The notes beneath the pieces were generated by a model. It was given only the letters and a program-made list of their open reading frames with translations. It was not told where the DNA came from and did no database searches. From Eledone cirrhosa (lineage: Eukaryota): a DNA stretch of 64,000 bases. The DNA is taken from the NCBI GenBank assembly GCA_964016885.1, contig OZ024742.1, positions 13,764,001 through 13,828,000 of the forward strand, read 5' to 3'. Of this stretch, positions 4,603 through 54,389 are shown in pieces. The translations under genes were made by a program, and so were the position numbers. Position 1 is the first letter of the stretch, and each line of letters opens with the position of its first letter.

Positions 4603-4925
4603 TAGTATGTATGTATAGGTACATACATATATGTATACAGACGTACAGTAGTATGTATATATATACATACATGCACACATATATATATGTGTACGGTTTA
4701 CCGAACATTGATTATAATGTTCGGTTTATTTGTTTGTAAACAAACAAACAGCCCGAATTACGCCGTACAGCGTTCAAGCAACCATCGTCGCCCTTTTGTT
4801 CAACACTGACACATTACTGTACGTCTGTATACATATATGTATGTACGTATACATACATACTTACATTTAAGTATCAAACGTACTAAAAGTGACAAATGAA
4901 ATTTCGATACATTCTTTTCCATTTA
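4603..4925 (+). mobile_element. Short non-coding element, family H1, copy 1 (inverted segment + 3' tail)
   Basis: 4603-4812 is the reverse complement of part of 8765-9120; it is followed by the forward tail ...GTACTAAAAGTGACAAATGAAATTTCG. Confidence 0.7.
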
Positions 4926-5030
4926 TGCATATATATATATATATATATAGTGATAAATATATATATATATAGTGACATATATATATATACGATATTAAAT
5001 AAATGGAAACTATATTTATAAAACCATATT

Positions 5031-5095
5031 TATTTCATTATACATATTTCAGGGATACCAAATTAAAATATGGTATGCCTTCATCAGACAAAATA
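5031..5095 (-). ncRNA. Type I hammerhead ribozyme (inverted copy)
   Basis: Reverse complement of 5310-5374. Confidence 0.7.
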
Positions 5096-5309
5096 CAATA
5101 TATAAACAGTTTTATAAATAATTTTGACGTACCCTATTAGATGCGACCATTATTTTTGGAAGCTGTCTGGATAGTTAGATGTTTATAATTATTTTATTAG
5201 TTAAACATTATAAACATTATAAACATCTAACTATCCAGACAGCTTCCAAAAATAATGGTCGCATCTAATAGGGTACGTCAAAATTATTTATAAAACTGTT
5301 TATATATTG

Positions 5310-5374
5310 TATTTTGTCTGATGAAGGCATACCATATTTTAATTTGGTATCCCTGAAATATGTATAATGAAATA
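5310..5374 (+). ncRNA. Type I hammerhead ribozyme
   Basis: TATTTTGT-CTGATGA-stem II (AGGcATACCA/TGGTATcCCT)-GAAA-TATGTA-TA-ATGAAATA; stem I pairs with G-U wobbles. Confidence 0.7.
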
Positions 5375-5864
5375 AATATGGTTTTATAAATATAGTTTCC
5401 ATTTATTTAGTATCGTATATCTATTCCAAAAACTTGTCGAGTGCTTTATATCAGTTATAAAATATTTACTTGTTGTATCCCAACAATTTTAAATAGAACT
5501 TTTGCATATATATATATATATATATATATATATATATATATATATAGTGATATATATATATATATATATAGTGATATATATATATATATAGTGATATATA
5601 TAGATATATAGATATATAGATATATAGTGATATATATATAGTGATATATATATATATACTTTCCCACGTATATATATATATATATATATATATATATATA
5701 TATATATATATATATATATATATATATATATATATATATATATATATATATATATATATATATATATATTTATAGTGATATACATATATATATATAATGA
5801 TATATATATAGTGATATATATATATATATATATATATATATATATATATATATATATATATATA

Positions 5865-50777: not shown

Positions 50778-50816
50778 TGAACAAGTACTTTCATGCTTTC
50801 GCAATCTTCAGGTTCA
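50778..50816 (-). ncRNA. Minimal type I hammerhead ribozyme (in the inverted pLTR)
   Basis: Exact reverse complement of 54152-54190. Confidence 0.8.
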
Positions 50817-51710
50817 TGATATGTGGTGACAGTCGAGTTTGCAATTTTCAACTGTAATGAGATGGGTAAATTTCCTACCTTTTATACATTTTATACAGAG
50901 AAAAGTGGCTCCAGAATGCAAAGCCCTGTAAACTGTATTTCGACCAATCAGTGTGTAGTTTCACTGAATTACTACAGCTGATTGGTTTAAGCGTCACGGC
51001 TGGTTGAGCATGCTAACGACCAATAGTCATACCCAACGTATCAATTGTTTTGCTTTTTGAAATGATGAAAATAGCATTTTCTATTAATCATCACCATCAA
51101 CATCACTTTTATTATTATTATTATTGTTGTTGTTGTTGTTGTTGTTGTTGTTGTTGTTGTTAGTGGTCGTGGTCATAGTGGTAGTAGAAGTAATACCCCT
51201 AGGCGTTATTATTGTTCATTTAGCTTGGGTTTGAATTTATCAATAAAATTCTTTTCTTTGATTTTTCTCTTGATTTCACTTGGGCTGTGTAATTTGTAGA
51301 ATGGGAATATTATAAATATTCCCTGACCACATGTTGCCAGGTGGCCGCTTAGGGGTATCTGACGGACATTTGGGTCTCTGATTTGTTGACGGTGTACCCG
51401 TGCACGTTCCGATAGTGCATTTCCAGTTTGACCGACATATAGTTCTTCACAATTCGGGCATTTAATGCAGTAAATTAGATTTCTGCTTTTGCAGTTCATA
51501 TTTGCATTTGGGAATATTTTTCCAGTTTTTGTTTTCATATATTGACCGGCGTGTATGGATTGACATGTGCCGCATCGATTATCATTGCATTTAGATACAG
51601 TGAATGATTGGTCTTTGTTGTTAAGGCCAAACTTTGCTTTTGTTATCATTTTGTATACGTTTAAGTGCAGACATTTCTGATTTGTTAATGTTTGGCCTAA
51701 CATTAGTATT

Positions 51711-53768
51711 ATGTCTAAGAGGAAATTTAGACAGAATAAATCAAATTTCACTCCGCCAAAAGGAAGAAATATCTATCTCGACCAATACATTGACATCCTG
51801 TCTAAATTTCCTCTTAGACATAATACTAATGTTAGGCCAAACATTAACAAATCAGAAATGTCTGCACTTAAACGTATACAAAATGATAAAACAATAATAA
51901 TTAAACAAGCAGATAAAGGGGGTGCAGTTGTTATAATGGATACTGAATACTACAAGGATTTGGTTGAGGAACAACTGAAAGACACAACATTCTATCATGA
52001 AATACCGTCAAATATAGACCACAACATCATGAAGAAGATCAACAACCTGGCTTCAAAATACCACAACTCATTTACTGATAAGGAAAGAGACTACATCACC
52101 AATTTTGAGCCGAAACCCAGCAACCTGTATGGCCTACCGAAAGTTCACAAGTCAAAAGAAATACAACTCGCAGTAAGAGAACAAAACAGTGAGTACATTA
52201 AATTATTACACCCAAAAGACTTAACACTTAGACCTATTATAGCTGGTCCAACATGCCCCACTCACCGTCTAAGCAATTTTGTTGACATTATTTTGAAACC
52301 ACTATGTATTCACATACCCAGTTTCATCCGGGATGATATCGACTTCCTGTCCCATCTTCCCAAAACCACGGAAACGAATTCACTTCTACTCAGTTTTGAT
52401 GTGGTAAGCCTTTACACCAACATTACACATGATTTAGGAATAAAGGCGGTTAAATACTGGGTGGAAAAACACATAGAAGTGATTCCCATTAGATTCACAG
52501 CGCCATTTATATTAGACGCAGTTAAACTTATTCTGGAAAACAATACTTTCTTCTTCAATGGAAAGAATTACATCCAAATTAGAGGCACAGCGATGAGAAC
52601 GAAGTTTGCTCCCGTTTACGCGAACTCTGTAATGGGATACTTAGAACAACAACTCTACCAAGAAATAGAGGAAAAATATAGTGCTGACTTTAGAAAGTAC
52701 ATTGAAAAATCTTGGAAGAGATACCTTGACGACTGTTTCATCATCTGGACAGAATCTCTAGATACTCTGGATGAGTTCAATATCCTCCTGAATAACCTAC
52801 ACCCATCTCTCCAATTCACAAAAGAGATGAGTAGGACCAAATTACCATTCCTAGATATAATGATAATCAAAAACGACACCACCATTACCACGGATATATA
52901 TTATAAACACACAGACATCCATCAATATCTGAATTTTAAGTTGTGCCATCCACCTCATACAAAACGCAACATCCCATACTGCCTGGCCAGAAGAATTTGT
53001 ACCATTGTAGAAGATACGAATACCAAGTACAAACGCCTAACAGAACTAAGAGAATTTTTGCTCAAACAAAAATACCCATCTCTACTTATAGAAAATGGCA
53101 TACAGCGGGCTATAAAAATACCTATACAACAACTTAGAACAACCGAAGGAAGAAGAAACCAAGAACTGGTCATACCATTTATAATGACACACAACCCATG
53201 TCACCAGAATATATTCAACACTGCCAAAGCAAACCTACCGATCATTGCTCAAAGTAATGAATTAAAAGGCTTAATCACAGATCGAACTTTGACTCTTAGT
53301 AAAAGACAGCCAAAAAATTTGAAGCAATTGCTAACAAAAGCAAAGTTTGACCTTAACAACAAAGACCAATCATTCACTGTATCTAAATGCAATGATAATC
53401 GATGCGGCACATGTCAATCCATACACGCCGGTCAATATATGAAAACAAAAACTGGAAAAATATTCCCAAATGCAAATATGAACTGCAAAAGCAGAAATCT
53501 AATTTACTGCATTAAATGCCCGAATTGTGAAGAACTATATGTCGGTCAAACTGGAAATGCACTATCGGAACGTGCACGGGTACACCGTCAACAAATCAGA
53601 GACCCAAATGTCCGTCAGATACCCCTAAGCGGCCACCTGGCAACATGTGGTCAGGGAATATTTATAATATTCCCATTCTACAAATTACACAGCCCAAGTG
53701 AAATCAAGAGAAAAATCAAAGAAAAGAATTTTATTGATAAACTCAAACCCAAGCTAAATGAACAATAA
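51711..53768 (+). CDS. PLE polyprotein: reverse transcriptase + thumb + Cys-rich linker + GIY-YIG endonuclease (5'-truncated)
   Basis: ADKGGAVVIM, YGLPKVHK, LRPII, FDVVSLYT, GTAM, WKRYLDD, LPFLD, CxxxxCxxC, NLIY..CxxC...YVGQTG. Confidence 0.93.
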   Translation: MSKRKFRQNKSNFTPPKGRNIYLDQYIDILSKFPLRHNTNVRPNINKSEMSALKRIQNDKTIIIKQADKGGAVVIMDTEYYKDLVEEQLKDTTFYHEIPSNIDHNIMKKINNLASKYHNSFTDKERDYITNFEPKPSNLYGLPKVHKSKEIQLAVREQNSEYIKLLHPKDLTLRPIIAGPTCPTHRLSNFVDIILKPLCIHIPSFIRDDIDFLSHLPKTTETNSLLLSFDVVSLYTNITHDLGIKAVKYWVEKHIEVIPIRFTAPFILDAVKLILENNTFFFNGKNYIQIRGTAMRTKFAPVYANSVMGYLEQQLYQEIEEKYSADFRKYIEKSWKRYLDDCFIIWTESLDTLDEFNILLNNLHPSLQFTKEMSRTKLPFLDIMIIKNDTTITTDIYYKHTDIHQYLNFKLCHPPHTKRNIPYCLARRICTIVEDTNTKYKRLTELREFLLKQKYPSLLIENGIQRAIKIPIQQLRTTEGRRNQELVIPFIMTHNPCHQNIFNTAKANLPIIAQSNELKGLITDRTLTLSKRQPKNLKQLLTKAKFDLNNKDQSFTVSKCNDNRCGTCQSIHAGQYMKTKTGKIFPNANMNCKSRNLIYCIKCPNCEELYVGQTGNALSERARVHRQQIRDPNVRQIPLSGHLATCGQGIFIIFPFYKLHSPSEIKRKIKEKNFIDKLKPKLNEQ

Positions 53769-54151
53769 TAACGCCTAGGGGTATTACTTCTACTACCACT
53801 ATGACCACGACCACTAACAACAACAACAACAACAACAACAACAATAATAATAATAATAAAAGTGATGTTGATGGTGATGATTAATAGAAAATGCTATTTT
53901 CATCATTTCAAAAAGCAAAACAATTGATACGTTGGGTATGACTATTGGTCGTTAGCATGCTCAACCAGCCGTGACGCTTAAACCAATCAGCTGTAGTAAT
54001 TCAGTGAAACTACACACTGATTGGTCGAAATACAGTTTACAGGGCTTTGCATTCTGGAGCCACTTTTCTCTGTATAAAATGTATAAAAGGTAGGAAATTT
54101 ACCTATCTCATTACAGTTGAAAATTGCAAATTCGACTGTCACCACATATCA

Positions 54152-54190
54152 TGAACCTGAAGATTGCGAAAGCATGAAAGTACTTGTTCA
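54152..54190 (+). ncRNA. Minimal type I hammerhead ribozyme in the PLE 3' pLTR
   Basis: TGAAC-CTGAAGA-TTGC GAAA GCAT-GAAA-GTAC-TT-GTTCA; stem III lies within the palindrome AAGTACTT. Confidence 0.8.
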
Positions 54191-54389
54191 ATTAACACTT
54201 AGAATTTAATATTCTATCATACTATTTCATTATAATACCATTATATATATTTTAAAGGATTGTAAATAAAACGAGTAAATCAGACAAAGTTGGAATTCCT
54301 CTTATTAATATAATCTTCTATACACAATCATACACACCCGTGTATATTTACCTATCTATATATATATATATATATATATATATATGTGT

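Follow-up and report, generated by a model that had tools for sequence, protein, structure and literature searches.

Penelope-like elements (PLEs) leave a characteristic footprint: inverted, 5′-truncated copies, a tail that often stands on one end, and a bias toward TA targets have all been described (PMC8557442, PMC3846280). Their pseudo-long terminal repeats (pLTRs) carry minimal, dimer-type hammerhead ribozymes, including pairs on opposite strands (Cervera and de la Pena 2014, PMC4209133), and a pLTR alone is reported to be enough for mobilization in trans (PMC3846280). For an element from an anole, in vitro work describes cutting and extension of both strands, two reverse transcriptase (RT) start sites that bound the tail, and hammerhead cleavage that is dispensable (PMC11167929). 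Retrozymes have been proposed to be non-autonomous derivatives of PLEs (PMC7229834; Li, Clavereau, Pollet 2026, bioRxiv 10.64898/2026.07.22.740005); in the second of these reports eight of nine predicted retrozyme dimers failed to cleave in vitro. Here we analyze a 64,000-nucleotide stretch of Eledone cirrhosa DNA (henceforth the window: positions 13764001–13828000 of contig OZ024742.1, in an assembly of 3.0 Gb). Very probably the window holds truncated, partly inverted insertions of three autonomous PLE families – PLE1, PLE2 (Neptune-type) and PLE3 (Hydra-type) – and of a 438-nt non-coding hammerhead family, F1, likely copied in trans by a PLE RT/GIY-YIG enzyme. The architecture common to these insertions is the published PLE insertion footprint (Arkhipova 2013, Craig 2021) and not a new system.

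The 3′ ends are bimodal in all four families. F1 ends at unit positions 378–387 and 431–438, and the two ends are spaced by 57 nt in PLE1, ∼40 nt in PLE2 and 82 nt in PLE3. TATATA or ATATAT follows the canonical outer 3′ end in 167 of 183 sampled copies, compared with 14–22% of random positions in the same loci; by family the counts are 63/75 (F1), 35/35 (Hydra-type), 43/44 (PLE1) and 26/29 (Neptune-type, at whose distal end the TA is partly the element's own sequence). A preliminary description of this DNA had placed all the elements in (TA)n tracts, and for the outer 3′ ends this holds, also relative to background, but the left end of the insertion at 8246–9121 adjoins a repeat resembling a short interspersed nuclear element (SINE). 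Within the elements a short TA-like motif is found at each of the eight 3′ end sites. Because these sites lie in AT-rich regions, priming by TA microhomology stays a lead.

Tails are distributed asymmetrically. Among inverted F1 insertions with two canonical ends, 17 of 19 have one tailed and one tail-less end (p = 0.0004 against 0.5); the two exceptions have two tail-less ends, and two tails were seen in 0/19. The queries for this count lacked the tail, insertions with an arm continuing into another unit or ending elsewhere were dropped, a duplicated row was counted once and one locus (L146) was reclassified after reading. In the coding families, where the query had itself selected one tailed end, the partner arm is tail-less in 25/26 cases (PLE1 9/9, PLE2 3/3, PLE3 13/14).

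The inverted arm could in principle stem from fold-back (self-priming) of a single cDNA instead of a second priming event on the other strand: self-priming has been proposed for rotifer PLEs (PMC3846280), and near-symmetric junctions exist (loci L044, L080, L108, L113 and L151, and window position 4981). Fold-back cannot, however, yield an arm longer than its template, and the tail-less arm reaches further toward the 5′ end than the tailed arm in 3/9 PLE1 and 2/13 PLE3 insertions, in F1 at L137 and L142, and in the window insertion at 5857. That either arm may be the longer one argues against fold-back as the sole route; we consider it unlikely, although it may account for the symmetric subset. 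Nor do the hammerheads appear to define the ends. The predicted cut lies 127–221 nt upstream of the nearer 3′ end in F1, PLE1 and PLE2 (in F1, 221 and 277 nt from its two 3′ ends), so cleavage is probably not the maker of these ends.

The preliminary description had recognized six non-coding elements and, from them, several miniature PLE derivatives. Those at 8245 and 8765 are one insertion, made of an inverted arm, a 5′-truncated unit and a full unit. Those at 4985 and 12743, taken as non-coding miniatures, belong, as 3′ ends, to an RT/GIY-YIG element of 3.9 kb; what had looked like a second short family is thus a truncated autonomous Hydra-type PLE, and F1 is the sole true miniature family of the window. 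Two partly overlapping searches gave 60 loci, at which F1 takes the form of dimers, partial tandems, head-to-head inversions or truncated monomers; at two loci it forms arrays of at least 23 and at least 15 units. The longest ATG-started frame in a natural F1 trimer is 64 aa. An exact 30-nt pattern from its hammerhead has 11,269 matches genome-wide, a lower bound on copy number, and the reversed control has 0. The first 30 matches by position gave, after merging five duplicates, 25 insertions; 10 are inverted. The earlier statement that nearly all elements carry an inverted duplicate therefore describes the window, where a self-comparison finds an inverted arm in 7/7 insertions, but not the genome.

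Across 83 F1 copies, variants recurring in at least five copies affect 0/12 hammerhead core positions and 13/113 other positions, and one stem I pair is exchanged, U-G for G-U, between subfamilies. This pattern suggests that the hammerhead motif has been retained in F1 source copies. Parts of F1-related sequence, at <90 to 99% identity, were found in sequencing runs of two other organisms. On its sequence F1 fits a non-LTR (long terminal repeat) retrozyme, being a non-coding tandem unit of <1 kb with a type I hammerhead per unit; the animal non-LTR retrozymes described likewise have non-coding units of 170–970 nt, a type I hammerhead, and forms ranging from dispersed monomers to long arrays. 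F1 differs from them in its minimal PLE-type hammerhead and in its direct PLE insertion footprint. The retrozyme papers argue from co-occurrence and pLTR homology; for F1, no pLTR homology to the six PLE 3′ ends compared was found. In nearly all units the octamer ATGCAAAT follows the F1 tail (window 8684–8760). This octamer may be an internal promoter element.

Could F1 instead be the pLTR of some larger, autonomous PLE missed by the sampling? The 4985/12743 family, first taken as a miniature, proved to be exactly that, and with the best 40 matches taken per search rare full-length masters could hide among the more than 11,000 F1 copies. Yet the F1 tail runs directly into the start of its own unit at 62 internal junctions, the longest array places 23 or more units without open reading frames (ORFs) head-to-tail, and 0/25 position-ordered insertions continue 5′ into a shared non-F1 element body in the same orientation. 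We regard a hidden master element as very improbable. The other possibility is that the likeness to PLEs is convergent, F1 having spread by self-cleaved circular RNA and the RT of a long interspersed nuclear element (LINE) or another non-PLE source, or by tandem amplification of DNA. Circular RNAs do accumulate from animal non-LTR retrozymes of about this size, for which LINEs have been suggested as carriers (PMC7229834); the F1 monomer has a strong predicted fold (z = −8.8), and the long arrays exist. Against a non-PLE enzyme stand the two fixed 3′ ends, distant from the predicted cleavage site, the one-tailed head-to-head inversions and the TA targets, all features of PLEs that F1 has in common with the three coding families, and this explanation too is improbable. 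Only the non-PLE enzyme is disfavored by this; a circular template copied by a PLE enzyme is compatible with the data.

Mobilization of F1 in trans draws structural support from the two fixed 3′ ends that it displays in the manner of PLEs. The proposal of the preliminary description, that GIY-YIG PLEs act in trans, is in this respect supported by the footprint, but the partner enzyme was not found. Several considerations weigh against copying by a PLE. Among the sampled loci no RT-encoding element proved to have a 3′ end like that of F1 (the expected occurrence of short families at the 3′ ends of RT elements holds for the 4985/12743 family, i.e., PLE3, but not for F1), and F1 has no pLTR homology among the six PLE 3′ ends compared, a microsatellite-like patch being all that is common to them; the partner is therefore deduced from the footprint alone. 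The evidence for F1 mobilization consists of DNA sequence, not RNA. Twelve of the 75 canonical F1 ends lie outside TA, many arms overlap in sequence, for which either a multimer or two templates would be needed, and for the anole element the RT start site is described as lacking homology to the cut DNA (PMC11167929). Finally, all samples save the position-ordered F1 set comprise best-scoring matches and are skewed to young copies.

Neighboring elements do not name the partner. Searches of F1 loci with the local PLE proteins (tblastn) returned neighbors only. Of 53 F1 loci, 8 have PLE1 and ∼6 have PLE3-like ends within 150 bp of F1, compared with one to two neighbors in 27–29 loci for other families; we read these associations as the outcome of common TA targets and similar age, and not as partnership. 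At L313 (750–1900) a Hydra-type endonuclease fragment stands head-to-head with an F1 unit with no TA between them, and a F1–PLE3 junction occurs once, at L028; these are too few for naming a partner. PLE1 micro-insertions, each a short inverted stub plus tail, are also seen beside F1 ends (L003:1947–1997, L143:1848–1896). Two further Neptune-type families (L274–L283) were considered as partners and rejected, their 3′ ends being unrelated to F1. These have 3′ untranslated regions (UTRs) of 1–2 kb, largely TA/TG microsatellite, and in one of them a hammerhead-like motif with a U3-A8 core was read by eye. The preliminary description had suggested that the elements could help explain the high microsatellite content of the window, a proposal to which such UTRs may be relevant. 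A fifth hammerhead family, with a CTGACGA core, has a 3′ end beside the L313 junction and is present at L069, L091, L161 and L283.

If F1 and the PLEs are copied alike, insertion might proceed as follows. The PLE endonuclease would cut both strands of a (TA)n tract, which reads alike on both. On an RNA of more than unit length each 3′-OH would then prime RT at an internal position, the distal site serving one and the proximal site the other, probably with the aid of the short TA-like motif there, and the two incomplete cDNAs would be joined head to head at their 5′-truncated ends. The hammerheads, minimal and mostly with a palindromic helix III, are predicted to cleave weakly, as dimers, in tandem transcripts, and F1 would most likely use a PLE-type enzyme in trans. 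Two internal RT start sites that set the tail are also a property of Anolis Poseidon (Frangieh 2024, PMC11167929), for which cutting of both strands in AT-rich DNA is described, as would apply here; the Poseidon start sites are AC-rich and non-homologous to the target, whereas here each site has a TA-like motif and each end uses one site. Non-coding dependants of PLEs are known from Chlamys, for example MRC1 (PMC8557442). These algal elements have pLTRs and form head-to-tail multimers; in contrast to F1, they have 3′ sequence in common with autonomous families, and no hammerhead is described for them in the text available.

A broader proposition combines coupled, two-ended TA priming by at least three PLE lineages, a retrozyme that borrows their enzyme, and a gag-pol-like conserved −1 frameshift in a large Neptune-type lineage; for this whole we see the arguments evenly poised. 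The finding is real and well supported but mostly known: the architecture has been described, so that as posed it will not surprise a specialist, and its value is that of a test system. What is new is one retrozyme family with a clear PLE footprint, besides numbers for the one-tail rule and the conservation of a slippery site. Which enzyme moves animal retrozymes has so far been inferred from co-occurrence and homology, while thousands of F1 copies show a PLE footprint; if two-ended priming is true, that footprint would be direct evidence for animal retrozymes being passengers of PLEs. For the in vitro assay that already exists, sharp predictions also follow from the one-tail rule and from the TA motifs at both start sites. 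No paper on the F1 family or on a Neptune frameshift was found, although subscription papers, Repbase, figures and bioRxiv supplements may describe both.

Full units, measured between repeats, are 4070 nt (PLE1), 4202 nt (PLE2) and 3896 nt (PLE3). All three families show the partial-tandem pLTR, inverted 5′ copy and optional tail of endonuclease-bearing (EN+) PLEs. Canonical EN+ PLEs are likewise described with an inverted 5′-truncated copy beside the body and a hammerhead near the 3′ end, and with TA targets for Neptune, Naiad and Hydra (PMC8557442). The tails here (∼40, 56, 57 and 82 nt) compare with 30–40 bp described for canonical elements, and the Hydra-type unit of 3.9 kb, with a 1.6-kb 3′ UTR, with lengths given as ‘generally <3 kb’. 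Both coding PLEs recognized earlier are indeed RT/GIY-YIG elements by protein matches and motifs. PLE2 has Pfam matches to RVT_1 and GIY-YIG; PLE1 matches RVT_1 (E = 5.5e-4), and its VYSIRC..YIGET was read by eye, as were YRDD and VYNC..YVGST in PLE3, for which Pfam gave no match.

The 4985 sequence recurs at 98–100% identity in 40 scored loci (the best 40 matches). Nine PLE3 copies outside the window have at least ∼1.5 kb of upstream sequence in common, continuing into GIY-YIG and RT frames, and a full 3896-nt unit stands at L164; the 12743 copy belongs to a subfamily 79–82% identical. The Hydra clade is defined by DKT, an RWK-like motif, a CxCX5C linker, absence of CCHH, CxxC plus CxH, and (TA)n targets (PMC8557442). 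PLE3 contains KSDKTNN (DKT), IRWRAF (RWR), CNCRNKSNC (CxCX5C), CDLC (CxxC) and CRH (CxH), with no CCHH, and by motifs rather than by a tree it is assigned to this clade. For Neptune we looked for a CX2-5CxxC linker, CCHH in the endonuclease and DKG; PLE2 has CNDNRCGTC, CIKCPNC plus two His (CCHH) and ADKGG, with a spacing resembling the Neptune rows of Fig. S2, and is placed in the Neptune clade on the same kind of motif evidence. For PLE1 the Neptune and Nematis clades were considered: with CX4CxxC and a short linker it is nearer to the Nematis rows, yet it has DKSG, and ∼70 additional residues separate its RT motifs 3 and 4; a long Asn/Thr-rich low-complexity stretch lies in the N-terminal half of PLE1 (L208, L214, L232). 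PLE1 and PLE3 apparently have single ORFs, broken differently from copy to copy. PLE2 copies, 99–100% identical, are young candidates within this genome for the enzyme that moves F1.

PLE2 departs from the single-ORF organization. In the full unit a 449-aa ORF1 overlaps the RT-endonuclease, which lies in the −1 frame, by 90 nt (L167:3467–3557), and the overlap holds CAT TTT TTA (U UUU UUA in phase). The RT frame has its first Met downstream of the conserved IINLS motif, and 401 bp around the overlap are identical in 40/40 scored copies. A distant ORF1 query recovered 30 loci of three families, 29 with the heptamer; a −1 position of the RT frame is seen at 15 loci of PLE2, at 11 of the second family and, cleanly, at one of three of the third (where a variable poly-C tract blurs the frame), and at one of the 30 loci ORF1 and RT are fused through a deletion. 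A profile search found 568 ORF1 relatives, 150 of which were listed; the 87 analyzed are those of 330–500 aa plus the query proteins (three of the 87 being in or behind the query alignment, and a 706-aa mussel gene model being excluded). Phe-Leu occurs in the last 70 residues of 78/87, compared with 11 and 23 in control windows, in proteins that lack DNA context and were found with a profile itself containing the Phe-Leu motif. Lys, Glu, Gln, Met and Trp, the five residues that have no U-ending codon, are absent from the position before it (0/78, 21% expected).

The PLE2 RT-endonuclease is thus likely to be expressed by programmed −1 frameshifting, with an intron as the alternative. Downstream of the slippery site no strong structure is predicted (−3.4 kcal/mol), no fused ORF1-RT was seen among the longer proteins (weak evidence), Pfam and the ESM Atlas gave no useful match to ORF1, and in metagenome and prokaryote contigs no DNA for distant ORF1 homologues was found. 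A separate ORF1 with a frameshift is known from Athena elements. A frameshifted ORF1 may be partly known already, as an ORF1 set apart by a frameshift appears in the legend to Fig. 1 of PMC8557442. Conservation of the slippery site suggests a separate, probably structural, ORF1 in many ‘single-ORF’ elements.

In the window, nine hammerhead motifs of four unrelated sequences had been reported, and all nine stand (Table 1). Seven come out of a strict type I scan, which demanded the core, stem II, a paired stem III base and a stem I of ≥4 bp, against 0.02 per shuffled window with a maximum of one (100 local dinucleotide shuffles); the remaining two, both from F1, deviate by a single stem mismatch and were picked up by an anchor search. 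The hammerhead expected in the copy at 4603 is absent, there being no CTGAnGA core. Rfam returned 386 matches in the window; the 150 listed include no hammerhead and comprise miRNA-like matches on TA repeats only, all under the gathering score. In common with the minimal hammerheads of metazoan PLEs (PMC4209133) the motifs have a type I core, a short helix I, a palindromic helix III and an extra base at the 5′ end of helix II, and opposite-strand pairs lie 100–700 bp apart. They differ from the published form in that a U-U apposition replaces G10.1-C11.1 in F1 and PLE2, and helix III is non-palindromic in PLE1 and the 4985 copies. Taken as posed, the observation of one shared architecture is partly confirmed, and its interpretation by PLEs partly supported.

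Table 1. Insertions and hammerhead motifs in the window (nucleotide positions; unit positions refer to the 438-nt F1 unit).
Feature	Position	Strand	Details
F1 insertion	4606..4926	+	inverted tail-less arm, unit 167-376; direct tailed arm, unit 326-438
PLE3 3′ end	4981..5506	+	inverted tail-less arm 4981-5203; direct arm to 5424; 82-nt tail 5425-5506
F1 insertion	5857..6208	+	inverted tail-less arm, unit 82-382; direct arm is tail only, unit 375-438
F1 insertion	8246..9121	+	inverted arm 8246-8311; truncated unit 8309-8683; full 438-nt unit 8684-9121, tailed
F1 tail	9066..9121	+	∼56 nt between 3′ end sites at unit 382 and 438; predicted hairpin
PLE1	10847..12729	-	last 1.75 kb of 4.07-kb unit; 57-nt tail 10847-10903; inverted tail-less arm 12599-12729
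Diverged PLE3-subfamily 3′ end	12743..13090	-	tailed arm 12743-12911 on -; inverted tail-less arm 12956-13090
PLE2, Neptune-type	50656..54352	+	inverted tail-less arm 50656-51651; second small inversion 51643-51737
PLE3 hammerhead, inverted arm	5031-5095	-	
PLE3 hammerhead, direct arm	5310-5374	+	
F1 hammerhead, insertion 5857..6208	6068-6110	-	
F1 hammerhead, truncated unit of 8246..9121	8334-8376	+	
F1 hammerhead, full unit of 8246..9121	8802-8844	+	
PLE1 hammerhead	11061-11103	-	
PLE3-subfamily hammerhead, inverted arm	12976-13040	+	
PLE2 hammerhead, inverted arm	50778-50816	-	
PLE2 hammerhead, direct body	54152-54190	+	

The first F1 insertion, which lacks a hammerhead, has TA at both flanks, and in the second the overlap between arms is minimal. 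The direct, 5′-truncated body of the PLE2 copy spans 51733–54352, its RT/GIY-YIG frame ending at 53768 and its tail being ∼40 nt; ORF1 and the slippery site of the full 4.2-kb unit fall 5′ of the truncation. A near-copy (96–98% identity) of window 3.7–14.1 kb lies ∼485 kb upstream, at 13.282–13.292 Mb (L002, L032, L072, L204). It is either a segmental duplication or an uncollapsed haplotype, and was excluded from all counts.

Other repeats are dispersed through the window. A SINE-like family occurs at 6835–7007, 8185–8248, 15200–15291, 17818–18327 and 19453–19879, with further copies at 38036–38330, 56484–56593, 59923–60157, 61287–61870 and 63637–63885; we take it to resemble cephalopod SINEs. 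Two sets of dispersed repeats lie by TA tracts (6204–6423 and 43280–43514; 21074–21725, 44201–44851 and 54390–55320), and neither gave a match in the strict hammerhead scan. Frameshifted transposase-like frames at 46243–47204 (HIKLGLMKQFVK, EEQGERF) have no Pfam match and presumably resemble Chapaev-type DNA transposases. Between 23273 and 34328 lies an array of ∼11 kb with a 33-nt unit, in which long open frames run on both strands.

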